From Eledone cirrhosa (lineage: Eukaryota): a stretch of 64,000 nt of DNA. This document shows, piece after piece, positions 36,694 to 61,662 of the stretch. How positions within the stretch are numbered: the stretch's first letter is position 1; each line of letters opens with the position of its first letter. The position numbers and the translations under genes are program-made. The notes beneath the pieces are model-generated. The model saw only the letters and a list, made by a program, of their open reading frames with translations. It did not search any database and was not told where the DNA came from. The stretch is from the NCBI GenBank assembly GCA_964016885.1, contig CAXHJY010001105.1, positions 124,001-188,000 on the forward strand, in the 5' to 3' direction.

Positions 36694-36749
36694 TATGTTG
36701 GCTGTCCTGGCTGGCGCCCGGCTACCATTGGCATGTTCTCTATATATAC

Positions 36750-39700: not shown

Positions 39701-40965
39701 GGTAAAGCCTTTACTGTGACAATACAATAGTATATATAGAGTAATGTAACTGTAATGTGAGATATTATGTGAGGTAAAGCCTTTACTGTGACAATACAAT
39801 AGTATATATAGAGTAATGTAAATGTTATGTGAGATATTATGTGAGGTAAAGCCTTTACTGTGACAATACAATAGTATATATAGAGTAATGTAAATGTTAT
39901 GTGAGATATTATGTGAGGTAAAGCCTTTACTGTGACAATACAATAGTATATATAGAGTAATGTAAATGTTATGCGAGATATTATGTGAGGTAAAGCCTTT
40001 ACTGTGAAAATACAATAGTATATATAGAGTAATGTAAATGTTATGTGAGGTATTATGTGAGGTAAAGCCTTTACTGTGAAAATACAATAGTATATATAGA
40101 GTAATGTAAATGTTATGTGAGGTATTATGTGAGGTAAAGCCTTTACTGTGACAATACAATAGTATATATAGAGTAATGTAAATGTTATGTGAGATATTAG
40201 TGAGGTAAAGCCTTTACTGTGAAAATACAATAGTATATATAGAGTAATGTAAATGTTATGTGAGATATTATGTGAGGTAAAGCCTTTACTGTGACAATAC
40301 AATAGTATATATAGAGTAATGTAACTGTTATGTGAGATATTATGTGAGGTAAAGCCTTTACTGTGACAATACAATAGTATATATAGAGTAATGTAACTGT
40401 TATGTGAGATATTATGTGAGGTAAAGCCTTTACTGTGACAATACAATAGTATATATAGAGTAATGTAAATGTTATGTGAGATATTATGTGAGGTAAAGCC
40501 TTTACTGTGACAATACAATAGTATATATAGAGTAATGTAACTGTTATGTGAGATATTATGTGAGGTAAAGACTTTACTGTGACAATACAATAGTATATAT
40601 AGAGTAATGTAACTGTTATGTGAGATATTATGTGAGGTAAAGCCTTTACTGTGACAATACAATAGTATATATAGAGTAATGTAAATGTTATGTGAGATAT
40701 TATGTGAGGTAAAGCCTTTACTGTGACAATACAATAGTATATATAGAGTAATGTAACTGTTATGTGAGATATTATGTGAGGTAAAGCCTTTACTGTGACA
40801 ATACAATAGTATATATAGAGTAATGTAACTGTTATGTGAGATATTATGTGAGGTAAAGCCTTTACTGTGACAATACAATAGTATATATAGAGTAATGTAA
40901 CTGTTATGTGAGATATTATGTGAGGTAAAGCCTTTACTGTGACAATACAATAGTATATATAGAGT
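36750..40965. repeat. 72-bp AT-rich satellite, left block (~60 monomers, includes 60-bp variants)
   Basis: Unit AATGTAAATGTTATGTGAGATATTATGTGAGGTAAAGCCTTTACTGTGACAATACAATAGTATATATAGAGT. The 60-bp variant lacks one copy of the internal 12-bp TTATGTGAG-containing duplication. 1596-bp higher-order duplication. Confidence 0.97.
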
Positions 40966-41202
40966 GGTTTCTTTATTTGCCACTAGGGCACAAAAGGTAG
41001 GGACAGATACAAGGGGGGAAGTTTACATATAATTAACGAGTACAAAAATATAACAATGAAATAACAACAACAAACGAAGTCCTCAATAGGGAGGGGGCAT
41101 TAACATGGGTCGCACACACCCCGGAAAAAATGTGTAACCCTTCTCCTCAGGAGCACAAAGAGTAGGTGCTTCCCTCGTCTCCTCTTTTTCCTCTTCTTTT
41201 AC

Positions 41203-44200
41203 CTACAGGCTGATATAGAGAGAAGACCCATTCACTCTGGCCATTCTCCCTACTTTCACCCACCTTTCATAAAACTTGCTGGGGTAGAGCACCTCTCTCT
41301 CCATTCTGATCCTTCTTTTAAAATGGTATTTGAAAAAGGGGACCAGTTGTTGGCCGGAGAGAAAGGTGTCTGACCTCAGCCCTTTCAGCCTCGTCCACCA
41401 TACAACTTCTTTAGCCATGGCTACCACACAGAGAAAAACCGCCTCTCCTTCGTTTTTGAAAGGGGGAGGCGGTTTGATCGTGACAATGGACTCGGTGGTC
41501 AACCGGATTGGTCCCACCCTCGACAGTAGTCGTTCCACATAGCCCCACAGGTCAGCAATGCCTGGGCAGTGTACGAATGCGTGCGCAACGGTTTCGCCAT
41601 CATGCACGCATCTCGGACAGATCTTATTCAAAGGATCTCTACCCAGGCTCCCATGCCTGTGGAGCTTGTCTCGAACGGGTAGAGCCCCTCGGTAGCACTG
41701 CCAAGCCAGGGACTTTTGGAAGTTGTCCATCGGTCCAGGGCCAAACGTCCTACCGAACAGACTGGCCAGTTCATCTTCCTCCATGCCTAGAGCTTCTCCG
41801 AGAGCATCGTCGCACCTGCTGCGTACCAACCCTCTATAGAATGTCGACGTGGAGTCTCCACTGATTGCCGGGTCCGCTTTCCAGAGGGCCGTGAGCGCCT
41901 GGGCACATTCAATGTGCCAGTCGCCCACTTTTCTCGGTCTTTGCTTGACCCAGGATTGCAGCTCGGTGAGCGAGACGAGTCTGGGAAAGGCTCGCCTCAC
42001 AAACGGGGCCCACACCGGTTGACCGGTGAGGAATACCTGGAGGTGCCGTAGCCTTAATGCGTGTTTACGCATCTGTAGCCACGGCATCCCCAGCCCTCCT
42101 TTCGAAGGGTGTTGACAGCAGATGGATCTCCTCACCAAAGGGGTCCGCTTGTTCCAAAGAAATTGGAACAGCGCGCACTCCATTTTGGCGAGTCTTTTCA
42201 CTGGGCAAGGCACGACGGTCAAGCGGTAGTAGATGACGGATGCTATATAAGTATTCGCCACCTCCGCTCGACCTTTCAGGGATAGTTTGCACTGGGCCCA
42301 CTTCTGGGTGAGTGCAAACACCCTGGCCGTTACCTCATTCCAGTTTTTCTCCACCTGGAGGTCTGGTCCGAACCAGACCCCAAGCAGCTTCACCGGGCCC
42401 TCCGTCCAGCGTCCGACGACGTCGTTGGAGGGCATCGGTTTGCCTCTCCATGTTCCGAGTTGCAAACCGACGGACTTGTCCCGGTTCAGCTTGGCTCCTG
42501 TAAACCTTTCATATTCCTCCAGTAAGGTGCCGATCTCACCGATTTGCGAGGTTTTCGACACCATTACTGTCACGTCATCGGCGTAGGCCGACGCCGCTTT
42601 CTGCAATCCCGGTTCCAAAGGGATGCCCTGCAACCGCTCCAACTTCCGCAGTAGTGGCTCAAGAGCCAGCACATACAGTAGGGAGGAGAGAGGGCATCCC
42701 TGTCGGATGGATCGCATGATTTGGAACGGCTCCGAGAGGTGGCCGTTCACCTTGACCCTTGAGCAGACGTTGCTGCTGTGCATCGCAGCAATCCAACCCC
42801 TGAAAACGGGTCCGAAGCCTGCCGCCGCGAGCACCGCATCCAGGTAACGATGGTCAACCCTATCGAAAGCTTTAGATTGATCCAAGTTGATCAGGGCCCC
42901 ACCAAAGCCGGGTTCATTCCCTACCCTCTCTATGATGTATCGCATAAGGTGGAGATTGTCGTGAATGGACCTGGACGGGATTGCGCATGTCTGCGCTTCT
43001 CCCACCAGGTTTCCAACGACAAGCGCCAACCTCTTCGCTAACACCTTGGCCAAAATCTTTAACTCTGTATTTAGCAGAGTTATGGGCCTGAAGTTACTTA
43101 TGTCATCCCCCTTGTTCTCATCCTTCCTCACCAGCGTAACTACGCCCTTGGTCACAGAACTGGGAATTCTCCCGTTCTGCTGCCAGTTGCAGTAGACCGC
43201 TTCGAGGATATCGGAGAACAAGTCCGGCATCGCTACATATAGCTCGTATGGTAGACCATCGAGACCCGGGGATTTGCGTTTGCCGCATTGGCTCAGCGCC
43301 GCCCCTATCTCAGCAGCTGAAATCGTCCTTTCGCAGGACTTCGCCTCCGCGTCCGAGAGGCGCGGCAGACCGTCGAGGTATGGATTGAAATCCATAGTCT
43401 CACCCGGCGCGCCGCCCCTCTCGAACAGTCGTGCAAAGTGCCGCTGAAAGGCCGCACACATCTGCCCAGGTTCAAGGATCACACGCCCATCCTGGTCCTT
43501 CAAAGACCGAATCGTGGACTTGTTCCCACTTTTTGCCTCTGTCACTCGGGCCCAGCTCACAGCTTTGGCTCCCTCATTACCCAGAGCACGTATTTTACTC
43601 CTGACAACGCAGCCTTCATGCTTCACCTCAAAGAACTGGTCTAAGGCCATTCTTGATGCCAGCACGCCGGCTACATTGCCACTCCTAATCGCCTCTTCTA
43701 CTCTATCTACTAATTCCCTTTCCGTCTTGTTCCTATCCCTTGCTAATTCCTGACTAAAACCTATCGATTCTATTCTAATTGCTCTCTTAAGAGAGCTCCA
43801 CCACCTGTTGTTGACAATTGCCCCTGTCAAACTCTGCTTAACTAACGTGCTAATCCGTTTACTGTAAGCTTTGCTTCTCGGTAAGGACAAGTTCAGCTTC
43901 CAGTAACCGGGTCCCTGTCTATGGGTTCTATCAAGGTTGGCTATGCAGGTCACTAACTTGTGATCCGAATAGTCAACCATGAACATTTTTGGACAGCTAA
44001 ATGTGTCCCTATCGTTCTCTCTAACTAGGACCCTATCTAGGTACGACCTAGATGTTCCACTGCGATTGGTCCACGTCCATAGTGGTACAGTCGGAAAATC
44101 TAGTCGATATCTATCGGCCAGGTCAAATCGGCCGATTAACCTTTTGAGGCTTTTACACCCCCCCCCCCTCTATTGGCACATGCCCCTACATAGTCCCAAC

Positions 44201-44645
44201 GTGCATCCAGGATACCATTCCAGTCCCCCACTAAAAGCAAGGAGCGGGACGTTCCCAGAAAAGTTTCCAGACGTTGGAAGTATTCCGGCCGCGCTGCCCA
44301 AAAAGGGGCGTACACAGCTATTAGTCTAAGGGCTCCACTTTCACTACTGCCGACGTCTAAAACCACCAGTCGACCCTCCGGGTCCAGGTGCACCTTCTGT
44401 ATGGCGAGGCCCAGGTGTTTTCGCAGCAGAACGACAACTCCACCCCCACCCCCCGGTTGACAGAGAGATGCGAAGATCTCAAAGTCGTCGAAGAGGGGCG
44501 CCAGTTGGTGCTCGCTGCTGATCCTGGACTCGCAAATAGCCATTACATCCATTCTATGCGACCTGAGATCGTTTAAAAGTTTGCCTTGTTTCCAAGACAG
44601 TCCCAGGCCACGTACATTCAGACACCCAACTCTTATATCAGCCAT
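41203..44645 (-). pseudogene. ORF2 (APE endonuclease + reverse transcriptase + C-terminal zinc finger) of copy 1, frameshifted at a G homopolymer
   Basis: Split into ORFs 44136-44645 and 41203-43986. The plus-strand C run at 44158-44168 is 11 nt, versus 6 and 9 in the intact copies. May be a homopolymer sequencing error. Confidence 0.85.
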
Positions 44646-44666
44646 GTTGGTTAAAAGAGGAAGGAC

Positions 44667-46409
44667 CTACCTGTTCGGCTCCTGAGGAGCAGGTTGCACA
44701 ATATCCATGGGCGTATTGGAGGGGTTGTTTGGTGGGGTGTTGTTCTGTGGTGGAGTGGGGGTGTTTGGTGAGGTGTGGGTGGGGAAACGTTTCAAGAGGA
44801 CGCGGTTATAGGGTCGAGTACATGTTTTCCCCACGTCCTCAGGAAAGTTCTCTCTTAGTTTTGCATAGGTGTCCATTGGGAGTCTTATCATTTTTAAATG
44901 CGGTTTGTTGGCCGCGCTTGCAAAGAATTGCCCTTCAGTTTCCACCAAAGGGTCTTTGTGTATTGTTTTTACTAGTTCTTTGTTATTTGTGTTAATGTAT
45001 GTATACTGTTTTATTTGTGTTGTGTTTGTTTGTTGTTCTTGTGTGTGCTTACGTTTTGTTGTATGTGTTATGTTTTGGGGTGGGGCGGATTTTGTTTGTT
45101 CTGTTTGTTTTGTTTTTGTTGGTGGTTGTGTGTTTGTTTCGTTTATGTTCGAGTGGTGCTTTCTTTTTTTCCTTTTTACAGGTTGGAAGGGTTCCCCCTC
45201 TTCGTCACTAGGTGCCGTTTCCACTGGGTCCTCGTCCGTGCTGTCGGGTAGTGGTGTATTTTGGGGTTTTGTTGTATTTGTGTGTGTTTTGGGAGTTGTT
45301 TTGGGTGGGGCCGTGTCTTGTGTTATTTTTCCCTGTTGTTTTTGTTGTTGTTGTGGTGGTGGTGGTGGAGGTGGTGGTGGTGGTGGTGGTGGCGGTGGTG
45401 GTGTGTGGGGTGTAGGCAAAAGAGCCTTTTTTTTTGTCAATTGAGGACAAGCAGCCCTTAGATGACCCCTGCTTGAACAGTAGTAACATATGGGCCTCCT
45501 ACCCTCGGCTGAAATATATATAAATGTTTCTCCATCGAGGGACACCCTCTGTGGTATTCTAGCTATTCGTTCTGGTCTCATTTGGACCAGAACCTCCACG
45601 CTCAAACCGCCGAAAACGTCTGTGGTGACTTCTCCTACTGAGAGGATTCCGTCCTCGTCTTCTAAAAATCCTGTTAGTACCCAGGAAATGCATGCATTTG
45701 GCCGGATTCCGGAGACCCTTATCTTCTGCGTTCTTTTCCCTAAATATGTGGGGAAAAATGTATGTAGCTTGGAAACAATTGGTGCCACAGAGTATTTCCT
45801 GGCCGTCAATTGATCCTTCATTAGGACCGTTATATTCCCATAGAGTGGCCCTTTTTGTATGAACGATATATCACTCCACACATTTTTTAGGACCAGCTCA
45901 ATCTCTTTTTGGGATAATTGAGTTGGTTTCCTTGTTATGTTGGAAATTGTTCTGAAAGATATCGTTCTTAGCGTCGTGTCTCTTTTGATTTCTTGTGGGG
46001 AGGTGATTGTGAAGTCTCCTCCTTCTTTGAAAGTTACATACTGTTTCGCTTCCTTCATCTTTTCTCTCAGAGTTGTAATGTCCAGTTGCTTGCAGGTTTG
46101 TGTTTTCCGGACCGCCTGTGCAAAGGAGGCACCAGTAGTGGGTTCGCTTTGTTTGGTGTTATCGTTATTTTTTCCTTGGTTGGTGTTGTGACTATTGCTG
46201 TTATTGTCGTTGTTGTTTTTGTCTGCGTTTATGTGACTTTCTGGGTTTTCACCCATTTTTACAAATTTTTCTTTTAATTCCGTGTTCCATGTTTCTTTTG
46301 CAGAAGTCAGGAGGGAAGACTTAGAGCCTTGTGCTTCTAGCTTCTCTGTATCACCTTTCTTAGGGGGCGTGGCTTTCACGTTAGGATGAGATGTGAAAAT
46401 TCCGTCCAT
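44667..46409 (-). CDS. ORF1 gag-like nucleic-acid-binding protein, copy 1 (580 aa from the first ATG)
   Basis: Zinc knuckle CYYCSSRGHLRAAC (CX2CX4HX4C), SFAQAV motif, poly-Pro tract, basic KRKKRKHH. First ATG (MDGIF) is at 46409; the ORF track starts upstream at a TTG (46502). Confidence 0.9.
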   Translation of the reverse strand: MDGIFTSHPNVKATPPKKGDTEKLEAQGSKSSLLTSAKETWNTELKEKFVKMGENPESHINADKNNNDNNSNSHNTNQGKNNDNTKQSEPTTGASFAQAVRKTQTCKQLDITTLREKMKEAKQYVTFKEGGDFTITSPQEIKRDTTLRTISFRTISNITRKPTQLSQKEIELVLKNVWSDISFIQKGPLYGNITVLMKDQLTARKYSVAPIVSKLHTFFPTYLGKRTQKIRVSGIRPNACISWVLTGFLEDEDGILSVGEVTTDVFGGLSVEVLVQMRPERIARIPQRVSLDGETFIYISAEGRRPICYYCSSRGHLRAACPQLTKKKALLPTPHTPPPPPPPPPPPPPPPPQQQQKQQGKITQDTAPPKTTPKTHTNTTKPQNTPLPDSTDEDPVETAPSDEEGEPFQPVKRKKRKHHSNINETNTQPPTKTKQTEQTKSAPPQNITHTTKRKHTQEQQTNTTQIKQYTYINTNNKELVKTIHKDPLVETEGQFFASAANKPHLKMIRLPMDTYAKLRENFPEDVGKTCTRPYNRVLLKRFPTHTSPNTPTPPQNNTPPNNPSNTPMDIVQPAPQEPNR

Positions 46410-46620
46410 TTCTATTAGTTTGCCGTAATAAATTTTTAACTGGAAAATTCGCCCCAAAAAGGGGCGAAAATAAATAAACTCAAAGTTTGACGACCAAGGC
46501 AAGGGGTTAACGTATATTACAGTATAAAAAAATTAATCAAAACTCACTTTTTGAGTAAGTAAATCCGACTCGGTAGCCGAGCTTGTTCACACACGTCAAC
46601 ACACGTCTCTCGTATACGAG

Positions 46621-47177
46621 ATGTTATGTGAGATATTATGTGAGGTAAAGCCTTTACTGTGACAATACAATAGTATATATAGAGTAATGTAAATGTTATG
46701 TGAGATATTATGTGAGGTAAAGCCTTTACTGTGACAATACAATAGTATATATAGAGTAATGTAACTGTTATGTGAGATATTATGTGAGGTAAAGCCTTTA
46801 CTGTGACAATACAATAGTATATATAGAGTAATGTAACTGTTATGTGAGATATTATGTGAGGTAAAGCCTTTACTGTGACAATACAATAGTATATATAGAG
46901 TAATGTAAATGTTATGTGAGATATTATGTGAGGTAAAGACTTTACTGTGACAATACAATAGTATATATAGAGTAATGTAACTGTTATGTGAGATATTATG
47001 TGAGGTAAAGCCTTTACTGTTACAATACAATAGTATATATAGAGTAATGTAACTGTTATGTGAGGTAAAGACTTTACTGTGACAATACAATAGTATATAT
47101 AGAGTAATGTAACTGTTATGTGAGATATTATGTGAGGTAAAGCCTTTACTGTGACAATACAATAGTATATATAGAGT
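46621..47177. repeat. 72-bp satellite spacer between LINE copies 1 and 2
   Basis: 557 bp = 7x72 + 60 - 7. Confidence 0.95.
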
Positions 47178-47414
47178 GGTTTCTTTATTTGCCACTAGGG
47201 CACAAAAGGTAGGGACAGATACAAGGGGGGAAGTTTACATATAATTAACGAGTACAAAAATATAACAATGAAATAACAACAACAAACGAAGTCCTCAATA
47301 GGGAGGGGGCATTAACATAGGTCGCACACACCCCGGAAAAAATGTGTAACCCTTCTCCTCAGGAGCACAAAGAGTAGGTGCTTCCCTCGTCTCCGCTTTT
47401 TCCTCTTCTTTCAC

Positions 47415-50400
47415 CTACAGGCTGATATAGAGAGAAGACCCATTCACTCTGGCCATTCTCCCTACTTTCACCCACCTTTCATAAAACTTGCTGGGGTAGA
47501 GCACCTCTCTCTCCATTCTGATCCTTCTTTTAAAATGGTATTTGAAAAAGGGGACCAGTTGTTGGCCGGAGAGAAAGGTGTCTGACCTCAGCCCTTTCAG
47601 CCTCGTCCACCATACAACTTCTTTAGCCATGGCTACCACACAGAGAAAAACCGCCTCTCCTTCGTTTTTGAAAGGGGGAGGCGGTTTGATCGTGACAATG
47701 GACTCGGTGGTCAACCGGATTGGTCCCACCCTCGACAGTAGTCGTTCCACATAGCCCCACAGGTCAGCAATGCCTGGGCAGTGTACGAATGCGTGCGCAA
47801 CGGTTTCGTCATCATGCACGCATCTCGGACAGATCTTATTCAAAGGATCTCTACCCAGGCTCCCATGCCTGTGGAGCTTGTCTCGAACGGGTAGAGCCCC
47901 TCGGTAGCACTGCCAAGCCAGGGACTTTTGGAAGTTGTCCATCGGTCCAGGGCCAAACGTCCTACCGAACAGACTGGCCAGTTCATCTTCCTCCATGCCT
48001 AGAGCTTCTCCGAGAGCATCGTCGCACCTGCTGCGTACCAACCCTCTATAGAATGTCGACGTGGAGTCTCCACTGATTGCCGGGTCCGCTTTCCAGAGGG
48101 CCGTGAGCGCCTGGGCACATTCAATGTGCCAGTCGCCCACTTTTCTCGGTCTTTGCTTGACCCAGGATTGCAGCTCGGTGAGCGAGACGAGTCTGGGAAA
48201 GGCTCGCCTCACAAACGGGGCCCACACCGGTTGACCGGTGAGGAATACCTGGAGGTGCCGTAGCCTTAATGCGTGTTTACGCATCTGTAGCCACGGCATC
48301 CCCAGCCCTCCTTTCGAAGGGTGTTGACAGCAGATGGATCTCCTCACCAAAGGGGTCCGCTTGTTCCAAAGAAATTGGAACAGCGCGCACTCCATTTTGG
48401 CGAGTCTTTTCACTGGGCAAGGCACGACGGTCAAGCGGTAGTAGATGACGGATGCTATATAAGTATTCGCCACCTCCGCTCGACCTTTCAGGGATAGTTT
48501 GCACTGGGCCCACTTCTGGGTGAGTGCAAACACCCTGGCCGTTACCTCGTTCCAGTTTTTCTCCACCTGGAGGTCTGGTCCGAACCAGACCCCAAGCAGC
48601 TTCACCGGGCCCTCCGTCCAGCGTCCGACGACGTCGTTGGAGGGCATCGGTTTGCCTCTCCATGTTCCGAGTTGCAAACCGACGGACTTGTCCCGGTTCA
48701 GCTTGGCTCCTGTAAACCTTTCATATTCCTCCAGTAAGGTGCCGATCTCACCGATTTGCGAGGTTTTCGACACCATTACTGTCACGTCATCGGCGTAGGC
48801 CGACGCCGCTTTCTGCAATCCCGGTTCCAAAGGGATGCCCTGCAACCGCTCCAACTTCCGCAGTAGTGGCTCAAGAGCCAGCACATACAGTAGGGAGGAG
48901 AGAGGGCATCCCTGTCGGATGGATCGCATGATTTGGAACGGCTCCGAGAGGTGGCCGTTCACCTTGACCCTTGAGCAGACGTTGCTGCTGTGCATCGCAG
49001 CAATCCAACCCCTGAAAACGGGTCCGAAGCCTGCCGCCGCGAGCACCGCATCCAGGTAACGATGGTCAACCCTATCGAAAGCTTTAGATTGATCCAAGTT
49101 GATCAGGGCCCCACCAAAGCCGGGTTCATTCCCTACCCTCTCTATGATGTATCGCATAAGGTGGAGATTGTCGTGAATGGACCTGGACGGGATTGCGCAT
49201 GTCTGCGCTTCTCCCACCAGGTTTCCAACGACAAGCGCCAACCTCTTCGCTAACACCTTGGCCAAAATCTTTAACTCTGTATTTAGCAGAGTTATGGGCC
49301 TGAAGTTACTTATGTCATCCCCCTTGTTCTCATCCTTCCTCACCAGCGTAACTACGCCCTTGGTCACAGAACTGGGAATTCTCCCGTTCTGCTGCCAGTT
49401 GCAGTAGACCGCTTCGAGGATATCGGAGAACAAGTCCGGCATCGCTACATATAGCTCGTATGGTAGACCATCGAGACCCGGGGATTTGCGTTTGCCGCAT
49501 TGGCTCAGCGCCGCCCCTATCTCAGCAGCTGAAATCGTCCTTTCGCAGGACTTCGCCTCCGCGTCCGAGAGGCGCGGCAGACCGTCGAGGTATGGATTGA
49601 AATCCATAGTCTCACCCGGCGCGCCGCCCCTCTCGAACAGTCGTGCAAAGTGCCGCTGAAAGGCCGCACACATCTGCCCAGGTTCAAGGATCACACGCCC
49701 ATCCTGGTCCTTCAAAGACCGAATCGTGGACTTGTTCCCACTTTTTGCCTCTGTCACTCGGGCCCAGCTTACAGCTTTGGCTCCCTCATTACCCAGAGCA
49801 CGTATTTTACTCCTGACAACGCAGCCTTCATGCTTCACCTCAAAGAACTGGTCTAAGGCCATTCTTGATGCCAGCACGCCGGCTACATTGCCACTCCTAA
49901 TCGCCTCTTCTACTCTATCTACTAATTCCCTTTCCGTCTTGTTCCTATCCCTTGCTAATTCCTGACTAAAACCTATCGATTCTATTCTAATTGCTCTCTT
50001 AAGAGAGCTCCACCACCTGTTGTTGACAATTGCCCCTGTCAAATTCTGCTTAACTAACGTGCTAATCCGTTTACTGTAAGCTTTGCTTCTCGGTAAGGAC
50101 AAGTTCAGCTTCCAGTAACCGGGTCCCTGTCTATGGGTTCTATCAAGGTTGGCTATGCAGGTCACTAACTTGTGATCCGAATAGTCAACCATGAACATTT
50201 TTGGACAGCTAAATGTGTCCCTATCGTTCTCTCTAACTAGGACCCTATCTAGGTACGACCTAGATGTTCCACTGCGATTGGTCCACGTCCATAGTGGTAC
50301 AGTCGGAAAATCTAGTCGATATCTATCGGCCAGGTCAAATCGGCCGATTAACCTTTTGAGGCTTTTACACCCCCCTCTATTGGCACATGCCCCTACATAG

Positions 50401-50852
50401 TCCCAACGTGCATCCAGGATACCATTCCAGTCCCCCACTAAAAGCAAGGAGCGGGACGTTCCCAGAAAAGTTTCCAGACGTTGGAAGTATTCCGGCCGCG
50501 CTGCCCAAAAAGGGGCGTACACAGCTATTAGTCTAAGGGCTCCACTTTCACTACTGCCGACGTCTAAAACCACCAGTCGACCCTCCGGGTCCAGGTGCAC
50601 CTTCTGTATTGCGAGGCCCAGGTGTTTTCGCAGCAGAACGACAACTCCACCCCCACCCCCCGGTTGACAGAGAGATGCGAAGATCTCAAAGTCGTCGAAG
50701 AGGGGCGCCAGTTGGTGCTCGCTGCTGATCCTGGACTCGCAAATAGCCATTACATCCATTCTATGTGACCTGAGATCGTTTAAAAGTTTGCCTTGTTTCC
50801 AAGACAGTCCCAGGCCACGTACATTCAGAAACCCAACTCTTATATCAGCCAT
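47415..50852 (-). CDS. ORF2: APE endonuclease + reverse transcriptase + zinc finger (1145 aa), copy 2
   Basis: APE motifs LNVRGL, ICES, VYAP, VGDWN, LDRV, SDH. RT motifs KSPGLDG, FRPITLLN, DQSKAFDRV, RQGCPLS, AYADD. C-terminal CPRC..ETVAHAFVHC. Confidence 0.96.
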   Translation of the reverse strand: MADIRVGFLNVRGLGLSWKQGKLLNDLRSHRMDVMAICESRISSEHQLAPLFDDFEIFASLCQPGGGGGVVVLLRKHLGLAIQKVHLDPEGRLVVLDVGSSESGALRLIAVYAPFWAARPEYFQRLETFLGTSRSLLLVGDWNGILDARWDYVGACANRGGCKSLKRLIGRFDLADRYRLDFPTVPLWTWTNRSGTSRSYLDRVLVRENDRDTFSCPKMFMVDYSDHKLVTCIANLDRTHRQGPGYWKLNLSLPRSKAYSKRISTLVKQNLTGAIVNNRWWSSLKRAIRIESIGFSQELARDRNKTERELVDRVEEAIRSGNVAGVLASRMALDQFFEVKHEGCVVRSKIRALGNEGAKAVSWARVTEAKSGNKSTIRSLKDQDGRVILEPGQMCAAFQRHFARLFERGGAPGETMDFNPYLDGLPRLSDAEAKSCERTISAAEIGAALSQCGKRKSPGLDGLPYELYVAMPDLFSDILEAVYCNWQQNGRIPSSVTKGVVTLVRKDENKGDDISNFRPITLLNTELKILAKVLAKRLALVVGNLVGEAQTCAIPSRSIHDNLHLMRYIIERVGNEPGFGGALINLDQSKAFDRVDHRYLDAVLAAAGFGPVFRGWIAAMHSSNVCSRVKVNGHLSEPFQIMRSIRQGCPLSSLLYVLALEPLLRKLERLQGIPLEPGLQKAASAYADDVTVMVSKTSQIGEIGTLLEEYERFTGAKLNRDKSVGLQLGTWRGKPMPSNDVVGRWTEGPVKLLGVWFGPDLQVEKNWNEVTARVFALTQKWAQCKLSLKGRAEVANTYIASVIYYRLTVVPCPVKRLAKMECALFQFLWNKRTPLVRRSICCQHPSKGGLGMPWLQMRKHALRLRHLQVFLTGQPVWAPFVRRAFPRLVSLTELQSWVKQRPRKVGDWHIECAQALTALWKADPAISGDSTSTFYRGLVRSRCDDALGEALGMEEDELASLFGRTFGPGPMDNFQKSLAWQCYRGALPVRDKLHRHGSLGRDPLNKICPRCVHDDETVAHAFVHCPGIADLWGYVERLLSRVGPIRLTTESIVTIKPPPPFKNEGEAVFLCVVAMAKEVVWWTRLKGLRSDTFLSGQQLVPFFKYHFKRRIRMEREVLYPSKFYERWVKVGRMARVNGSSLYISL

Positions 50853-50873
50853 GTTGGTTAAAAGAGGAAGGAC

Positions 50874-52616
50874 CTACCTGTTCGGCTCCTGAGGAGCAGG
50901 TTGCACAATATCCATGGGCGTATTGGAGGGGTTGTTTGGTGGGGTGTTGTTCTGTGGTGGAGTGGGGGTGTTTGGTGAGGTGTGGGTGGGGAAACGTTTC
51001 AAGAGGACGCGATTATAGGGTCGAGTACATGTTTTCCCCACGTCCTCAGGAAAGTTCTCTCTTAGTTTTGCATAGGTGTCCATTGGGAGTCTTATCATTT
51101 TTAAATGCGGTTTGTTGGCCGCGCTTGCAAAGAATTGCCCTTCAGTTTCCACCAAAGGGTCTTTGTGTATTGTTTTTACTAGTTCTTTGTTATTTGTGTT
51201 AATGTATGTATACTGTTTTATTTGTGTTGTGTTTGTTTGTTGTTCTTGTGTGTGCTTACGTTTTGTTGTATGTGTTATGTTTTGGGGTGGGGCGGATTTT
51301 GTTTGTTCTGTTTGTTTTGTTTTTGTTGGTGGTTGTGTGTTTGTTTCGTTTATGTTCGAGTGGTGCTTTCTTTTTTTCCTTTTTACAGGTTGGAAGGGTT
51401 CCCCCTCTTCGTCACTAGGTGCCGTGTCCGCTGGGTCCTCGTCCGTGCTGTCGGGTAGTGGTGTATTTTGGGGTTTTGTTGTATTTGTGTGTGTTTTGGG
51501 AGTTGTTTTGGGTGGGGCCGTGTCTTGTGTTATTTTTCCCTGTTGTTTTTGTTGTTGTTGTGGTGGTGGTGGTGGAGGTGGTGGTGGTGGTGGTGGTGGC
51601 GGTGGTGGTGTGTGGGGTGTAGGCAAAAGAGCCTTTTTTTTTGTCAATTGAGGACAAGCAGCCCTTAGATGACCCCTGCTTGAACAGTAGTAACATATGG
51701 GCCTCCTACCCTCGGCTGAAATATATATAAATGTTTCTCCATCGAGGGACACCCTCTGTGGTATTCTAGCGATTCGTTCTGGTCTCATTTGGACCAGAAC
51801 CTCCACGCTCAAACCGCCGAAAACGTCTGTGGTGACTTCTCCTACTGAGAGGATTCCGTCCTCGTCTTCTAAAAATCCTGTTAGTACCCAGGAAATGCAT
51901 GCATTTGGCCGGATTCCGGAGACCCTTATCTTCTGCGTTCTTTTCCCTAAATATGTGGGGAAAAATGTATATATCTTGGAAACAATTGGTGCCACAGAGT
52001 ATTTCCTGGCCGTCAATTGATCCTTCATTAGGACCGTTATATTCCCATAGAGTGGCCCTTTTTGTATGAACGATATATCACTCCACACATTTTTTAGGAC
52101 CAGCTCAATCTCTTTTTGGGATAATTGAGTTGGTTTCCTTGTTATGTTGGAAATTGTTCTGAAAGATATCGTTCTTAGCGTCGTGTCTCTTTTGATTTCT
52201 TGTGGGGAGGTGATTGTGAAGTCTCCTCCTTCTTTGAAAGTTACATACTGTTTCGCTTCCTTCATCTTTTCTCTCAGAGTTGTAATGTCCAGTTGCTTGC
52301 AGGTTTGTGTTTTCCGGACCGCCTGTGCAAAGGAGGTACCAGTAGTGGGTTCACTTTGTTTGGTGTTATCGTTATTTTTTCCTTGGTTGGTGTTGTGACT
52401 ATTGCTGTTATTGTCGTTGATGTTTTTGTCTGCGTTTATGTGACTTTCTGGGTTTTCACCCATTTCTACAAATTTTTCTTTTAATTCCGTGTTCCATGTT
52501 TCTTTTGCAGAAGTGAGGAGGGAAGACTTAGAGCCTTGTGCTTCTAGCTTCTCTGTATCACCTTTCTTAGGGGGCGTGGCTTTCACGTTAGGATGAGATG
52601 TGAAAATTCCGTCCAT
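50874..52616 (-). CDS. ORF1 gag-like CCHC protein, copy 2
   Basis: As copy 1. First ATG at 52616. Confidence 0.9.
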   Translation of the reverse strand: MDGIFTSHPNVKATPPKKGDTEKLEAQGSKSSLLTSAKETWNTELKEKFVEMGENPESHINADKNINDNNSNSHNTNQGKNNDNTKQSEPTTGTSFAQAVRKTQTCKQLDITTLREKMKEAKQYVTFKEGGDFTITSPQEIKRDTTLRTISFRTISNITRKPTQLSQKEIELVLKNVWSDISFIQKGPLYGNITVLMKDQLTARKYSVAPIVSKIYTFFPTYLGKRTQKIRVSGIRPNACISWVLTGFLEDEDGILSVGEVTTDVFGGLSVEVLVQMRPERIARIPQRVSLDGETFIYISAEGRRPICYYCSSRGHLRAACPQLTKKKALLPTPHTPPPPPPPPPPPPPPPPQQQQKQQGKITQDTAPPKTTPKTHTNTTKPQNTPLPDSTDEDPADTAPSDEEGEPFQPVKRKKRKHHSNINETNTQPPTKTKQTEQTKSAPPQNITHTTKRKHTQEQQTNTTQIKQYTYINTNNKELVKTIHKDPLVETEGQFFASAANKPHLKMIRLPMDTYAKLRENFPEDVGKTCTRPYNRVLLKRFPTHTSPNTPTPPQNNTPPNNPSNTPMDIVQPAPQEPNR

Positions 52617-52827
52617 TTCTATTAGTTTGCCGTAATAAATTTTTAACTGGAAAATTCGCCCCAAAAAGGGGCGAAAATAAATAAACTCAAAGTTTGACGA
52701 CCAAGGCAAGGGGTTAACGTATATTACAGTATAAAAAAATTAATCAAAACTCACTTTTTGAGTAAGTAAATCCGACTCGGTAGCCGAGCTTGTTCACACA
52801 CGTCAACACACGTCTCTCGTATACGAG

Positions 52828-52892
52828 ATGTTATGTGAGATATTATGTGAGGTAAAGCCTTTACTGTGACAATACAATAGTATATATAGAGT
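52828..52892. repeat. Single 72-bp satellite monomer minus 7 bp, between LINE copies 2 and 3
   Basis: 65 bp, ATGTTATGTGAG...TATATATAGAGT, which is the monomer lacking AATGTAA. Confidence 0.95.
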
Positions 52893-53129
52893 GGTTTCTT
52901 TATTTGCCACTAGGGCACAAAAGGTAGGGACAGATACAAGGGGGGAAGTTTACATATAATTAACGAGTACAAAAATAAAACAATGAAATAACAACAACAA
53001 ACGAAGTCCTCAATAGGGAGGGGGCATTAACATGGGTCGCACACACCCCGGAAAAAATGTGTAACCCTTCTCCTCAGGAGCACAAAGAGTAGGTGCTTCC
53101 CTCGTCTCCTCTTTTTCCTCTTCTTTCAC

Positions 53130-56100
53130 CTACAGGCTGATATAGAGAGAAGACCCATTCACTCTGGCCATTCTCCCTACTTTCACCCACCTTTCATAAA
53201 ACTTGCTGGGGTAGAGCACCTCTCTCTCCATTCTGATCCTTCTTTTAAAATGGTATTTGAAAAAGGGGACCAGTTGTTGGCCGGAGAGAAAGGTGTCTGA
53301 CCTCAGCCCTTTCAGCCTCGTCCACCATACAACTTCTTTAGCCATGGCTACCACACAGAGAAAAACCGCCTCTCCTTCGTTTTTGAAAGGGGGAGGCGGT
53401 TTGATCGTGACAATGGACTCGGTGGTCAACCGGATTGGTCCCACCCTCGACAGTAGTCGTTCCACATAGCCCCACAGGTCAGCAATGCCTGGGCAGTGTA
53501 CGAATGCGTGCGCAACGGTTTCGTCATCATGCACGCATCTCGGACAGATCTTATTCAAAGGATCTCTACCCAGGCTCCCATGCCTGTGGAGCTTGTCTCG
53601 AACGGGTAGAGCCCCTCGGTAGCACTGCCAAGCCAGGGACTTTTGGAAGTTGTCCATCGGTCCAGGGCCAAACGTCCTACCGAACAGACTGGCCAGTTCA
53701 TCTTCCTCCATGCCTAGAGCTTCTCCGAGAGCATCGTCGCACCTGCTGCGTACCAACCCTCTATAGAATGTCGACGTGGAGTCTCCACTGATTGCCGGGT
53801 CCGCTTTCCAGAGGGCCGTGAGCGCCTGGGCACATTCAATGTGCCAGTCGCCCACTTTTCTCGGTCTTTGCTTGACCCAGGATTGCAGCTCGGTGAGCGA
53901 GACGAGTCTGGGAAAGGCTCGCCTCACAAACGGGGCCCACACCGGTTGACCGGTGAGGAATACCTGGAGGTGCCGTAGCCTTAATGCGTGTTTACGCATC
54001 TGTAGCCACGGCATCCCCAGCCCTCCTTTCGAAGGGTGTTGACAGCAGATGGATCTCCTCACCAAAGGGGTCCGCTTGTTCCAAAGAAATTGGAACAGCG
54101 CGCACTCCATTTTGGCGAGTCTTTTCACTGGGCAAGGCACGACGGTCAAGCGGTAGTAGATGACGGATGCTATATAAGTATTCGCCACCTCCGCTCGACC
54201 TTTCAGGGATAGTTTGCACTGGGCCCACTTCTGGGTGAGTGCAAACACCCTGGCCGTTACCTCGTTCCAGTTTTTCTCCACCTGGAGGTCTGGTCCGAAC
54301 CAGACCCCAAGCAGCTTCACCGGGCCCTCCGTCCAGCGTCCGACGACGTCGTTGGAGGGCATCGGTTTGCCTCTCCATGTTCCGAGTTGCAAACCGACGG
54401 ACTTGTCCCGGTTCAGCTTGGCTCCTGTAAACCTTTCATATTCCTCCAGTAAGGTGCCGATCTCACCGATTTGCGAGGTTTTCGACACCATTACTGTCAC
54501 GTCATCGGCGTAGGCCGACGCCGCTTTCTGCAATCCCGGTTCCAAAGGGATGCCCTGCAACCGCTCCAACTTCCGCAGTAGTGGCTCAAGAGCCAGCACA
54601 TACAGTAGGGAGGAGAGAGGGCATCCCTGTCGGATGGATCGCATGATTTGGAACGGCTCCGAGAGGTGGCCGTTCACCTTGACCCTTGAGCAGACGTTGC
54701 TGCTGTGCATCGCAGCAATCCAACCCCTGAAAACGGGTCCGAAGCCTGCCGCCGCGAGCACCGCATCCAGGTAACGATGGTCAACCCTATCGAAAGCTTT
54801 AGATTGATCCAAGTTGATCAGGGCCCCACCAAAGCCGGGTTCATTCCCTACCCTCTCTATGATGTATCGCATAAGGTAGAGATTGTCGTGAATGGACCTG
54901 GACGGGATTGCGCATGTCTGCGCTTCTCCCACCAGGTTTCCAACGACAAGCGCCAACCTCTTCGCTAACACCTTGGCCAAAATCTTTAACTCTGTATTTA
55001 GCAGAGTTATGGGCCTGAAGTTACTTATGTCATCCCCCTTGTTCTCATCCTTCCTCACCAGCGTAACTACGCCCTTGGTCACAGAACTGGGAATTCTCCC
55101 GTTCTGCTGCCAGTTGCAGTAGACCGCTTCGAGGATATCGGAGAACAAGTCCGGCATCGCTACATATAGCTCGTATGGTAGACCATCGAGACCCGGGGAT
55201 TTGCGTTTGCCGCATTGGCTCAGCGCCGCCCCTATCTCAGCAGCTGAAATCGTCCTTTCGCAGGACTTCGCCTCCGCGTCCGAGAGGCGCGGCAGACCGT
55301 CGAGGTATGGATTGAAATCCATAGTCTCACCCGGCGCGCCGCCCCTCTCGAACAGTCGTGCAAAGTGCCGCTGAAAGGCCGCACACATCTGCCCAGGTTC
55401 AAGGATCACACGCCCATCCTGGTCCTTCAAAGACCGAATCGTGGACTTGTTCCCACTTTTTGCCTCTGTCACTCGGGCCCAGCTCACAGCTTTGGCTCCC
55501 TCATTACCCAGAGCACGTATTTTACTCCTGACAACGCAGCCTTCATGCTTCACCTCAAAGAACTGGTCTAAGGCCATTCTTGATGCCAGCACGCCGGCTA
55601 CATTGCCACTCCTAATCGCCTCTTCTACTCTATCTACTAATTCCCTTTCCGTCTTGTTCCTATCCCTTGCTAATTCCTGACTAAAACCTATCGATTCTAT
55701 TCTAATTGCTCTCTTAAGAGAGCTCCACCACCTGTTGTTGACAATTGCCCCTGTCAAACTCTGCTTAACTAACGTGCTAATCCGTTTACTGTAAGCTTTG
55801 CTTCTCGGTAAGGACAAGTTCAGCTTCCAGTAACCGGGTCCCTGTCTATGGGTTCTATCAAGGTTGGCTATGCAGGTCACTAACTTGTGATCCGAATAGT
55901 CAACCATGAACATTTTTGGACAGCTAAATGTGTCCCTATCGTTCTCTCTAACTAGGACCCTATCTAGGTACGACCTAGATGTTCCACTGCGATTGGTCCA
56001 CGTCCATAGTGGTACAGTCGGAAAATCTAGTCGATATCTATCGGCCAGGTCAAATCGGCCGATTAACCTTTTGAGGCTTTTACACCCCCCCCCTCTATTG

Positions 56101-56570
56101 GCACATGCCCCTACATAGTCCCAACGTGCATCCAGGATACCATTCCAGTCCCCCACTAAAAGCAAGGAGCGGGACGTTCCCAGAAAAGTTTCCAGACGTT
56201 GGAAGTATTCCGGCCGCGCTGCCCAAAAAGGGGCGTACACAGCTATTAGTCTAAGGGCTCCACTTTCACTACTGCCGACGTCTAAAACCACCAGTCGACC
56301 CTCCGGGTCCAGGTGCACCTTCTGTATTGCGAGGCCCAGGTGTTTTCGCAGCAGAACGACAACTCCACCCCCACCCCCCGGTTGACAGAGAGATGCGAAG
56401 ATCTCAAAGTCGTCGAAGAGGGGCGCCAGTTGGTGCTCGCTGCTGATCCTGGACTCGCAAATAGCCATTACATCCATTCTATGTGACCTGAGATCGTTTA
56501 AAAGTTTGCCTTGTTTCCAAGACAGTCCCAGGCCACGTACATTCAGACACCCAACTCTTATATCAGCCAT
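53130..56570 (-). CDS. ORF2: APE endonuclease + reverse transcriptase + zinc finger (1146 aa), copy 3
   Basis: Same motifs as copy 2, with one extra Gly from the 9-nt G run. Confidence 0.96.
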   Translation of the reverse strand: MADIRVGCLNVRGLGLSWKQGKLLNDLRSHRMDVMAICESRISSEHQLAPLFDDFEIFASLCQPGGGGGVVVLLRKHLGLAIQKVHLDPEGRLVVLDVGSSESGALRLIAVYAPFWAARPEYFQRLETFLGTSRSLLLVGDWNGILDARWDYVGACANRGGGCKSLKRLIGRFDLADRYRLDFPTVPLWTWTNRSGTSRSYLDRVLVRENDRDTFSCPKMFMVDYSDHKLVTCIANLDRTHRQGPGYWKLNLSLPRSKAYSKRISTLVKQSLTGAIVNNRWWSSLKRAIRIESIGFSQELARDRNKTERELVDRVEEAIRSGNVAGVLASRMALDQFFEVKHEGCVVRSKIRALGNEGAKAVSWARVTEAKSGNKSTIRSLKDQDGRVILEPGQMCAAFQRHFARLFERGGAPGETMDFNPYLDGLPRLSDAEAKSCERTISAAEIGAALSQCGKRKSPGLDGLPYELYVAMPDLFSDILEAVYCNWQQNGRIPSSVTKGVVTLVRKDENKGDDISNFRPITLLNTELKILAKVLAKRLALVVGNLVGEAQTCAIPSRSIHDNLYLMRYIIERVGNEPGFGGALINLDQSKAFDRVDHRYLDAVLAAAGFGPVFRGWIAAMHSSNVCSRVKVNGHLSEPFQIMRSIRQGCPLSSLLYVLALEPLLRKLERLQGIPLEPGLQKAASAYADDVTVMVSKTSQIGEIGTLLEEYERFTGAKLNRDKSVGLQLGTWRGKPMPSNDVVGRWTEGPVKLLGVWFGPDLQVEKNWNEVTARVFALTQKWAQCKLSLKGRAEVANTYIASVIYYRLTVVPCPVKRLAKMECALFQFLWNKRTPLVRRSICCQHPSKGGLGMPWLQMRKHALRLRHLQVFLTGQPVWAPFVRRAFPRLVSLTELQSWVKQRPRKVGDWHIECAQALTALWKADPAISGDSTSTFYRGLVRSRCDDALGEALGMEEDELASLFGRTFGPGPMDNFQKSLAWQCYRGALPVRDKLHRHGSLGRDPLNKICPRCVHDDETVAHAFVHCPGIADLWGYVERLLSRVGPIRLTTESIVTIKPPPPFKNEGEAVFLCVVAMAKEVVWWTRLKGLRSDTFLSGQQLVPFFKYHFKRRIRMEREVLYPSKFYERWVKVGRMARVNGSSLYISL

Positions 56571-56591
56571 GTTGGTTAAAAGAGGAAGGAC

Positions 56592-58334
56592 CTACCTGTT
56601 CGGCTCCTGAGGAGCAGGTTGCACAATATCCATGGGCGTATTGGAGGGGTTGTTTGGTGGGGTGTTGTTCTGTGGTGGAGTGGGGGTGTTTGGTGAGGTG
56701 TGGGTGGGAAAACGTTTCAAGAGGACGCGGTTATAGGGTCGAGTACATGTTTTCCCCACGTCCTCAGGAAAGTTCTCTCTTAGTTTTGCATAGGTGTCCA
56801 TTGGGAGTCTTATCATTTTTAAATGCGGTTTGTTGGCCGCGCTTGCAAAGAATTGCCCTTCAGTTTCCACCAAAGGGTCTTTGTGTATTGTTTTTACTAG
56901 TTCTTTGTTATTTGTGTTAATGTATGTATACTGTTTTATTTGTGTTGTGTTTGTTTGTTGTTCTTGTGTGTGCTTACGTTTTGTTGTATGTGTTATGTTT
57001 TGGGGTGGGGCGGATTTTGTTTGTTCTGTTTGTTTTGTTTTTGTTGGTGGTTGTGTGTTTGTTTCGTTTATGTTCGAGTGGTGCTTTCTTTTTTTCCTTT
57101 TTACAGGTTGGAAGGGTTCCCCCTCTTCGTCACTAGGTGCCGTTTCCGCTGGGTCCTCGTCCGTGCTGTCGGGTAGTGGTGTATTTTGGGGTTTTGTTGT
57201 ATTTGTGTGTGTTTTGGGAGTTGTTTTGGGTGGGGCCGTGTCTTGTGTTATTTTTCCCTGTTGTTTTTGTTGTTGTTGTGGTGGTGGTGGTGGAGGTGGT
57301 GGTGGTGGTGGTGGTGGCGGTGGTGGTGTGTGGGGTGTAGGCAAAAGAGCCTTTTTTTTTGTCAATTGAGGACAAGCAGCCCTTAGATGACCCCTGCTTG
57401 AACAGTAGTAACATATGGGCCTCCTACCCTCGGCTGAAATATATATAAATGTTTCTCCATCGAGGGACACCCTCTGTGGTATTCTAGCTATTCGTTCTGG
57501 TCTCATTTGGACCAGAACCTCCACGCTCAAACCGCCGAAAACGTCTGTGGTGACTTCTCCTACTGAGAGGATTCCGTCCTCGTCTTCTAAAAATCCTGTT
57601 AGTACCCAGGAAATGCATGCATTTGGCCGGATTCCGGAGACCCTTATCTTCTGCGTTCTTTTCCCTAAATATGTGGGGAAAAATGTATGTAGCTTGGAAA
57701 CAATTGGTGCCACAGAGTATTTCCTGGCCGTCAATTGATCCTTCATTAGGACCGTTATATTCCCATAGAGTGGCCCTTTTTGTATGAACGATATATCACT
57801 CCACACATTTTTTAGGACCAGCTCAATCTCTTTTTGGGATAATTGAGTTGGTTTCCTTGTTATGTTGGAAATTGTTCTGAAAGATATCGTTCTTAGCGTC
57901 GTGTCTCTTTTGATTTCTTGTGGGGAGGTGATTGTGAAGTCTCCTCCTTCTTTGAAAGTTACATACTGTTTCGCTTCCTTCATCTTTTCTCTCAGAGTTG
58001 TAATGTCCAGTTGCTTGCAGGTTTGTGTTTTCCGGACCGCCTGTGCAAAGGAGGCACCAGTAGTGGGTTCGCTTTGTTTGGTGTTATCGTTATTTTTTCC
58101 TTGGTTGGTGTTGTGACTATTGCTGTTATTGTCGTTGTTGTTTTTGTCTGCGTTTATGTGACTTTCTGGGTTTTCACCCATTTTTACAAATTTTTCTTTT
58201 AATTCCGTGTTCCATGTTTCTTTTGCAGAAGTCAGGAGGGAAGACTTAGAGCCTTGTGCTTCTAGCTTCTCTGTATCACCTTTCTTAGGGGGCGTGGCTT
58301 TCACGTTAGGATGAGATGTGAAAATTCCGTCCAT
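56592..58334 (-). CDS. ORF1 gag-like CCHC protein, copy 3
   Basis: As copy 1. First ATG at 58334. Confidence 0.9.
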   Translation of the reverse strand: MDGIFTSHPNVKATPPKKGDTEKLEAQGSKSSLLTSAKETWNTELKEKFVKMGENPESHINADKNNNDNNSNSHNTNQGKNNDNTKQSEPTTGASFAQAVRKTQTCKQLDITTLREKMKEAKQYVTFKEGGDFTITSPQEIKRDTTLRTISFRTISNITRKPTQLSQKEIELVLKNVWSDISFIQKGPLYGNITVLMKDQLTARKYSVAPIVSKLHTFFPTYLGKRTQKIRVSGIRPNACISWVLTGFLEDEDGILSVGEVTTDVFGGLSVEVLVQMRPERIARIPQRVSLDGETFIYISAEGRRPICYYCSSRGHLRAACPQLTKKKALLPTPHTPPPPPPPPPPPPPPPPQQQQKQQGKITQDTAPPKTTPKTHTNTTKPQNTPLPDSTDEDPAETAPSDEEGEPFQPVKRKKRKHHSNINETNTQPPTKTKQTEQTKSAPPQNITHTTKRKHTQEQQTNTTQIKQYTYINTNNKELVKTIHKDPLVETEGQFFASAANKPHLKMIRLPMDTYAKLRENFPEDVGKTCTRPYNRVLLKRFPTHTSPNTPTPPQNNTPPNNPSNTPMDIVQPAPQEPNR

Positions 58335-58548
58335 TTCTATTAGTTTGCCGTAATAAATTTTTAACTGGAAAATTCGCCCCAAAAAGGGGCGAAAATAAAT
58401 AAACTCAAAGTTTGACGACCAAGGCAAGGGGTTAACGTATATTACAGTATAAAAAAAAAATTAATCAAAACTCACTTTTTGAGTAAGTAAATCCGACTCG
58501 GTAGCCGAGCTTGTTCACACACGTCAACACACGTCTCTCGTATACGAG

Positions 58549-60714: not shown

Positions 60715-60720
60715 AAGGGT

Positions 60721-60781
60721 TAAGGATGAAAGGCAAAGCTAACCTTGTCGGGAATTGAACTCAGAACATAAAGGGCCATAA
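60721..60781 (-). mobile_element. Fragment of the same tRNA-SINE family as 34901-35115
   Basis: TAAGGATGAAAGGCAAAGCTAACCTTGTCGGGAATTGAACTCAGAACATAAAGGGCCATAA aligns by eye with ~35007-35067. Confidence 0.8.
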
Positions 60782-60787
60782 CAAGAC

Positions 60788-61662
60788 AAACAACAACAAC
60801 AGTGACAACAACAGTAACAGCATCACCACTACCACCACCAACAACCATAACAACAACAACACCACCACCACCAACAACAACAACAGTAACAACACAGTAA
60901 CAAGATCAGCAGTAACACCAACACCAACAACAACAACAGTAACAACACCACCACCAACACCACCACCAACAACAACACCAACAACAACACCAACAGTAAC
61001 AACAACAACAACAACAACAACAGTAACAACACCACCAACAACAACAACACCAACAACACCAACAACAACACCAACAGTAACAACAACAACAACAACAGTA
61101 ACAACACCACCAACAACAACAACACCAACAACACCAACAACAACAGTAACACCACCACCAACAACAACAACAACAACACCAACAGTAACAACAACAACAA
61201 CAGTAACACCACCACCAACAACAACAACAACAACAACAACAGTAACAACAACAGTAACAACACCACCAACAACAACACCAACAACACCACCACCAACAAG
61301 AACAACAACAACACCAACAACAACAACACCAACAGTAACAACAACAACAGTAACAACAACACCAACAACAACAACACCAACAGTAACAACAACAACAACA
61401 ACACCACCAACAACAACACCAACAACACCAACAACAACACCAACAGTAACACCAACACCACCAACAACAACAACACCAACAGTAACAACACCACCACCAC
61501 CAACAACAACACCAACAGTAACAACAACACCACCACCAACAACAACAACACCACCAACAGTAACAACAACAACAGTAACAACACCACCACCAACAACAAC
61601 AACACCAACAACAACAACACCAACAGTAACACCACCACCACCAACAACAACAACAACAACAA
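60788..61662. repeat. Compound trinucleotide microsatellite (AAC/CAC with interspersed AGT)
   Basis: About 870 bp of in-phase AAC/ACC/AGT triplets. Confidence 0.95.

Follow-up and report, generated by a model that had tools for sequence, protein, structure and literature searches.

The stretch analysed here, a 64,000-bp window of the genome of the mollusc Eledone cirrhosa (assembly GCA_964016885.1, contig CAXHJY010001105.1, positions 124,001 to 188,000), carries three copies (E1, E2 and E3) of a retrotransposon with two open reading frames (ORFs), the second of which encodes an APE-type endonuclease and a reverse transcriptase, inserted in a tandem array of a 72-bp unit. The molluscan character of the genome is borne out by 39 matches to the haemocyanin domain, and haemocyanin genes of seven units each would fit an octopod. 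Genomic sequence makes it very probable that this is a young element, likely of the Tx1 clade, which occupies one and the same base of an internal repeat of a piggyBac transposon at hundreds of loci, and which likely arrived there by separate target-primed insertions.

Insertion at a single base of the 72-bp unit

The exact 3′-terminal 23-mer of the element occurs 260 times in the 3.0-Gb genome, on many contigs, while the reversed pattern used as a control does not occur (0). The same six unit bases follow 258 of these 260 3′ ends, and one of the two exceptions (L059) lies at this site as well and deviates by one base. All fetched 3′ flanks continue as the unit (30/30 and, in a second set, 30/30), and all fetched 5′ ends (30/30) lie directly after unit position 65, where position 1 is the base that follows the 3′ junction. 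In its exact form, the empty 27-base site has 31,111 occurrences among about 6 billion strand positions; as 258 of the 260 copies nevertheless lie at that base, chance is excluded. Fewer than 1% of the sites are filled. Tx1 families are counted as target-specific when more than 20% of their flanks are one repeat (PMC4494074), a share which is 258/260 in the present family. Insertions at the same unit base on many contigs are also what the initial annotation of the window had proposed to look for in other arrays.

Immediately past the 3′ junction, 8 bases are invariant in 68/68 copies, and positions 1–5 are changed in 0/68 as against 18/252 in neighbouring units (p 0.017), which fits either recognition by the endonuclease or a short 3′ read-through. 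The 73 full-length copies compared (70 sampled and the three of the window) have a median divergence of 1.05%, and both ORFs are kept in 24 of them.

Clusters of copies with a spacing of about 5.7–7 kb, as in the window, are present at C1:4228980-4259392 (six copies), C10:40723317-40746827 (five) and C10:41385135-41396665 (three). On the four largest contigs (C1–C4), most of the listed copies are found less than about 30 Mb from a contig end (C1, C2, C3), and copy density is higher on small contigs. Low-depth contigs of organisms B and C, 99% identical, extend beyond the 5′ junction by 30 bases, and one of organism B extends beyond the 3′ junction by 22; these matches fall below the standard of 31 bases, may be contamination and are not counted. 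Contigs of organism E contain the host terminus, relatives of about 87% identity and the empty site.

Element copies in the window

The copies in the window are as follows.

40966-46620 (5655 bp), minus strand: element copy E1, full length, with ORF1 open and ORF2 broken
44667-46409, minus strand: ORF1 of E1, open
44136-44645 and 41203-43986, minus strand: pieces of ORF2 of E1, with a frameshift in a G-run near 44165
47178-52827 (5650 bp), minus strand: element copy E2, with both ORFs open (ORF1 50874-52616, ORF2 47415-50852)
52893-58548 (5656 bp), minus strand: element copy E3, with both ORFs open, a 214-bp 5′ untranslated region (UTR) and a 237-bp 3′ UTR

The initial annotation had described three elements of about 5.65 kb in one orientation and with fixed junctions to the unit, separated by eight monomers and by a single one, two of them with both ORFs intact. 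All of this is borne out, the spacers measuring 557 bp (8 units) and 65 bp and the intact copies being E2 and E3. ORF1 has 580 amino acids in E1, E2 and E3, and ORF2 has 1145 in E2 and 1146 in E3, while ORF2 of E1 is disrupted by a 2-base length change inside the G-run. None of the three copies has a poly(A) tail at its 3′ end, and 7 unit bases, positions 66–72, are absent at every insertion.

E1 and E3 differ by 9 substitutions, whereas E2, which belongs to a different subfamily, differs from its two neighbours by 18 and 21. The nearest kin of E2, on contigs C2, C15 and C18, are 5 substitutions away; E1 is 8 substitutions from a copy on C2, and the smallest clade containing both E1 and E2 comprises 35 of the 73 full-length copies. 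As E2 has closer kin on other contigs than beside it, the array in the window has been struck by at least two independent insertions. The initial annotation had offered as an alternative a single insertion that multiplied together with its array through unequal crossover. This would account for the identical orientation and junctions and for the small distance between E1 and E3; one allele common to E2 and E3 that is present in 0/70 other full-length copies is a sign of local exchange, and tandem clusters exist on C1 and C10. However, 260 copies are spread across many contigs at the same site, truncated copies have the same 3′ junction, and E1–E3 do not form a locus-specific clade, so that this alternative, of very low probability, is rejected for the family and could account at most for the pair E1/E3.

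The allele private to E2 and E3 is one of two E2-type alleles that E3 carries at about 56330-56485 (and at the corresponding part of E2), a pattern that suggests either gene conversion, short and local, or mixing in the assembly. That the whole tandem structure is an artefact of assembly may be considered, as the window belongs to a repeat-rich unplaced contig (C1132) and lies amid several satellites, the frameshift of E1 falls in a homopolymer, and the E2/E3 allele may reflect mixed reads. Yet the window copies carry subfamily alleles known in 13–26 dispersed copies, and identical junctions recur on chromosome-scale contigs, which leaves an artefact barely credible.

The host element

The 72-bp tandem array spans 36746-60714 and contains about 97 units, broken by E1–E3. 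Its parts, and the one host terminus visible beside it, are given below.

36746-40965, minus strand: array downstream of E1, with 72-bp units and a 60-bp variant; the right end of the host is missing here
46621-47177 (557 bp), minus strand: array between E2 and E1, with one 65-bp partial unit, six 72-bp units and one 60-bp unit
52828-52892 (65 bp), minus strand: partial unit between E3 and E2
58549-60714, minus strand: array upstream of E3, about 30 units
60707-60723, minus strand: left terminus of the host non-autonomous piggyBac, TTAA and terminal inverted repeat, with 1 mismatch to the family terminus

Elements of the piggyBac type are marked by TTAA on both sides and by inverted termini of the form CCC...GGG. 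Of the distinct array ends at the sampled loci, 67 of 112 on the left and 51 of 102 on the right have a common host terminus, with TTAA outside 60/67 and 43/51 of them, respectively, and the two termini form a perfect 19-base inverted repeat including TTAA. Five empty host elements with both ends visible (from 9 loci, 10 arrays) are 210–752 bp long, and four of the five have TTAA on both sides. A search of the genome for a piggyBac transposase, the DDE_Tnp_1_7 partner, gave 125 matches, and in 19 of the 30 loci fetched both termini have no more than 2 mismatches over 13 bases to the host terminus. The autonomous family (L171–L200, e.g. L174:511-3077), which is young and intact, is 2567 bp long with an ORF of 558 amino acids, and seven other copies are 97.3–99.9% identical. 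At its left end, 12 of the 13 terminal bases agree with those of the host, and at some loci the right ends are about 67% identical over 150 bp. These common inverted TTAA termini, which match a transposase family, identify the 72-bp repeat from its sequence context as the internal repeat of a dispersed non-autonomous piggyBac, expanded in the window to a long array, and not as a free-standing satellite. The proposal in the initial annotation that the family has specialised on a 72-bp satellite is thus upheld for its specificity, which is to one base genome-wide, and revised for the nature of its target.

A second piggyBac family with different termini is present in the same genome. Within the window, a fragment of 197 amino acids of a Tc1/mariner-like transposase (35631-36224; HTH_Tnp_Tc3_2 weak, E 0.06) adjoins the broken right end of the host, and a long (AAC)n-type microsatellite (60789-61662) lies beside its left terminus. 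Other satellites, with units of 48, 65, 79 and 57 bp, occupy 1-27412, 28299-31359, 31931-34213 and 61926-64000, and the ORFs across the 48-bp array are artefacts of the repeat.

Probable independence of the insertions

Both flanks were fetched for 80 of the first 100 listed copies, from contigs C1–C19. Element base 1 is reached in 70 of the 80, and the remaining 10 are partial. Six of these ten start at element positions 4969–5611 and have the same 3′ junction as the full-length copies, while their upstream target ends at unit positions 1–18, giving short duplications with 0–5 bases of microhomology; a further truncated copy from a separate set starts at 4705 (951 bp) and has the same 3′ junction. 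Truncated copies of this kind had been named in the initial annotation as something to seek. The signs of target-primed retrotransposition, 5′ truncation, a common 3′ junction, duplications and microhomology, are thus all found.

Since the termini of the host are those of piggyBac and the genome contains an intact transposase family, and since 70 of 80 copies are full length with a single type of 5′ junction, it might be supposed that one or a few original insertions were dispersed together with the host element by the piggyBac transposase. The right ends of the hosts, however, differ by a median of 14.5% as against 1.4% for the retrotransposons they carry (376 non-independent pairs, 28 loci), the two divergences are uncorrelated (rho −0.03), and in the 31 pairs with less than 0.5% divergence between retrotransposons the host ends are 13.6% divergent. 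Transport of the composite is rejected on the grounds that the host ends are some ten-fold more divergent than their cargo without correlation; truncated copies with differing 5′ ends but a common 3′ junction, and a uniform flank just 25 bases long, speak against it as well, and its probability is put at very little. Occupied units span the first to the last position within arrays.

The upstream junction and a putative RNA-borne arm

Full-length copies have 5′ junctions that are exact across the last 12 bases in 69/70, and are accompanied by the 7-bp deletion of the target. Upstream of this junction, a short segment that matches unit positions 41–65 is nearly invariant and is referred to as the putative 5′ arm, located in the window as follows.

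58549-58573, minus strand: putative 5′ arm of E3, of some 25 bases and no more than about 29, matching unit positions 41–65
52828-52852, minus strand: putative 5′ arm of E2, within the 65 bp that separate E3 from E2
46621-46645, minus strand: putative 5′ arm of E1

Unit positions 41–65 are altered in only 3 of 70 element-adjacent upstream units as against 142 of 250 neighbouring units (two farther upstream and two downstream; Fisher p 2e-17), and no such effect is seen at positions 6–36, where 50/70 adjacent and 151/250 neighbouring units are altered. Variants common to both neighbours are carried by the adjacent unit in 24/30 cases at positions 13–35 and in 0/5 at positions 41–62. The exact 41–65 sequence is missing upstream of five of the six short truncated copies, and the first nick is thus independent of that sequence. 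A 65-bp target duplication, which in a 72-bp repeat is equivalent in length to a 7-bp deletion, was considered and rejected, as the flanking 36 bases are identical in 15/68 copies, which is not more often than among other adjacent units (17/61, 25/65 and 19/55).

The RNA of the element likely carries a 5′ arm of about 25–29 bases that matches the target and seals the precise junction, as far as can be judged from the footprint left in the genome. In the mechanism proposed, a nick made in one strand by the ORF2 endonuclease, at unit position 1, would be followed by reverse transcription that begins at the untailed 3′ end of the RNA. The RNA itself would begin about 25–29 bases upstream of the apparent 5′ end, within the preceding unit, and its start may, as a guess, be set by an internal promoter acting upstream. 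At the end of a complete cDNA there would then be an arm that pairs with the upstream target and takes its place, with the loss of 7 bases, while incomplete cDNAs without the arm would join via the 0–5 bases of microhomology, at the junctions where duplications of 1–18 bases are observed. Earlier, the piggyBac transposase would have dispersed the hosts, and expansion of the repeat would then have multiplied the sites.

An alternative that accepts the targeting as real holds that the invariant 25 bases are recognised by a protein for second-strand cleavage 7 bases upstream, and are not carried by RNA. It would likewise yield the 7-bp deletion and a canonical upstream sequence at full-length copies only, the arm is known from its genomic footprint alone, and the bases after the 3′ junction are invariant too, so that protein or RNA does read the target. 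Against it stand the variants common to both neighbours, which at positions 41–62 are missing from the adjacent unit (0/5, 4 loci). Reading 25 contiguous bases without a tolerated change or length variant, moreover, far exceeds what is known for endonucleases of this type. Off-target insertions of the R1A element also show an RNA-borne arm directly (PMC2718515), and recognition by a protein is therefore given a slim chance only.

A wider reading, to which a small chance is given, is that of an active L1/Tx1-type element which completes most of its insertions at full length because a short arm on its RNA pairs with the target and overwrites it. It would be a natural system of homology arms within the endonuclease class of LINE-1, whose junction, and perhaps whose choice of site, could be redirected by a change of arm, and would live as a parasite of a piggyBac repeat that continues to make new sites.

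Several points weigh against the interpretation of the family as a young element placed by separate target-primed insertions in a piggyBac repeat. The exact 3′-terminal 23-mer favours young copies and leaves older or 3′-altered ones uncounted, the initial DNA search gave 4414 candidates of which 40 were scored, and the 80 sampled copies were chosen to avoid most tandem clusters. E1 and E3, 9 substitutions apart, could be a local duplicate pair; one partial copy, starting at 3880, has a junction of the full-length type, and the upstream side of 3/10 partial copies could not be placed. The 376 pairs of the divergence comparison are not independent of one another, and the overwriting comparison consists of five variants in four loci. 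The host terminus is visible at just 67/112 left and 51/102 right array ends, and the 72-bp unit was searched for in the autonomous piggyBac without success (best E 0.15), leaving an origin of the unit there unsupported. For the nicking and for the RNA arm alike, the support comes from genomic sequence alone.

Coding capacity and classification

The two proteins are described from E3.

56592-58334, minus strand: ORF1, 580 amino acids, with one CCHC zinc knuckle at residues 308–321 after a likely RRM-type region
53130-56570, minus strand: ORF2, 1146 amino acids, with an APE-type endonuclease (residues 22–228), a reverse transcriptase (513–757) and a zinc-binding domain (977–1033)

ORF1 contains the CCHC motif itself, although its Pfam match to zf-CCHC (E 0.007) falls under the curated cut-off; its look-alikes in an atlas, among RRM/CCHC proteins, are weak (scores 0.90–0.92) and serve as leads only for the RRM-type region, and its C-terminal half is of low complexity. 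ORF2 contains Exo_endo_phos, RVT_1 and zf-RVT, each above cut-off, and its catalytic motifs are intact, with YADD at residue 687. Its best solved relative is human L1 ORF2p (residues 4–858, E 2e-52), followed by R2 (E 4e-23), these two being the sole non-LTR (LTR, long terminal repeat) proteins among the solved relatives. Two ORFs, of which the second combines an APE endonuclease, a reverse transcriptase and a C-terminal zinc domain without RNase H, constitute the layout of the L1/Tx1 group, and on this layout and the closer similarity to L1 the element is classified from its predicted proteins as an APE-type non-LTR retrotransposon of that group. Membership of the Tx1 clade is likely; among the 39 and 56 homologues retrieved and the listed cluster members, none bears a name. 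An ORF1 with RRM and CCHC (Type I) is consistent with Tx1 in non-mammalian animals (PMC5203782), and the target-specific clades among APE-type elements are Tx1 and R1 (PMC4640811).

The opening 12 bases of the element (58537-58548 in E3) form a perfect palindrome, next to which hairpins are predicted in the 5′ UTR. No known self-cleaving ribozyme was found at the 5′ end with Rfam (58200-58800), where three matches of E 2.4–4.2 lie far below the gathering scores.

A sister family with open frames exists in the same genome, and came up at 79% identity when the closest database homologue (70% to ORF2) was used as the query; 50 matches were scored and 12 copies fetched (L210–L221). In all 12 a similar motif at the terminus precedes (ATT)n, and 0/12 match the 72-bp unit. 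Four and two of the 12 copies have common downstream sequences, and many copies of its ORF2 are open. With its (ATT)n 3′ ends, this family forms with the present one a natural pair for studies of target change.

Relation to known systems and significance

The element Tx1L of Xenopus laevis has its site in internal tandem repeats of Tx1D and makes a 23-bp duplication, whereas the present family has a mollusc host, an AT-rich unit of 72 bp and a 7-bp deletion. Tx1D is itself a non-autonomous piggyBac (PMC4494074), so that both are endonuclease/reverse transcriptase elements at a specific sequence within such a transposon, and the endonuclease of Tx1L nicks its target near-exclusively (PMC1950540). 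The initial annotation had regarded the target as unusual for the clade, a view that does not hold, as PMC4494074 names a non-autonomous piggyBac as the Tx1 target in Xenopus and, in a figure legend, lists satellites among known Tx1 targets. The crocodilian families Tx1-Mar and Tx1-9_AMi likewise prefer DNA transposons, Mariner-N4_AMi and Harbinger (PMC4494074), and would be counterparts of the present family, given that its Tx1 membership is likely; they are, however, old (85–87% to the consensus) with a preference at the level of a region, in contrast to about 1% divergence, specificity for a single base and 24/73 copies with both ORFs here.

The closest parallel for the junctions is the melanogaster-type R1A, an R1-clade element of 28S rDNA, in which full-length copies have a precise deletion and truncated ones duplications, and transcripts are proposed to carry 6–27 nt of upstream target (PMC2718515). 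The two differ in clade and target and in the deletion, of 9 bp in R1A and 7 bp here, and the polymorphic target of the present family lets the putative arm be mapped on-target. Human LINE-1 (long interspersed nuclear element 1) ORF2p has the same domain order. A poly(A) tail, an ORF1 of the coiled-coil type and a target that is short and loose characterise L1, however, whereas the present element has no tail, a CCHC-type ORF1 and one site.

The family thus appears to resemble Tx1L in target choice and R1A in junction formation, each of which is known, while their combination in a young mollusc family was not found in the literature searched (excluding Repbase and subscription papers), where neither a 5′ arm in a Tx1 element nor this family is described. 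Cephalopod L1-Tx1 and piggyBac families are counted in PMC8967140 and PMC13282606, the consulted parts of which do not describe targets.

Because the target is polymorphic, the extent of upstream sequence replaced at each insertion is recorded in the genome, whereas targets in uniform rDNA cannot reveal it. Second-strand priming, which of all steps in LINE insertion is the least understood, thereby becomes testable with a marked donor and target. With 24/73 copies intact, a specificity of 99% and 70/80 copies full length, the family could serve as a candidate for work on site-specific insertion, which at present relies mainly on R2. The arrangement of Tx1L in piggyBac is extended from frogs to a mollusc, which suggests that small DNA transposons repeatedly offer, in their internal repeats, a safe target.

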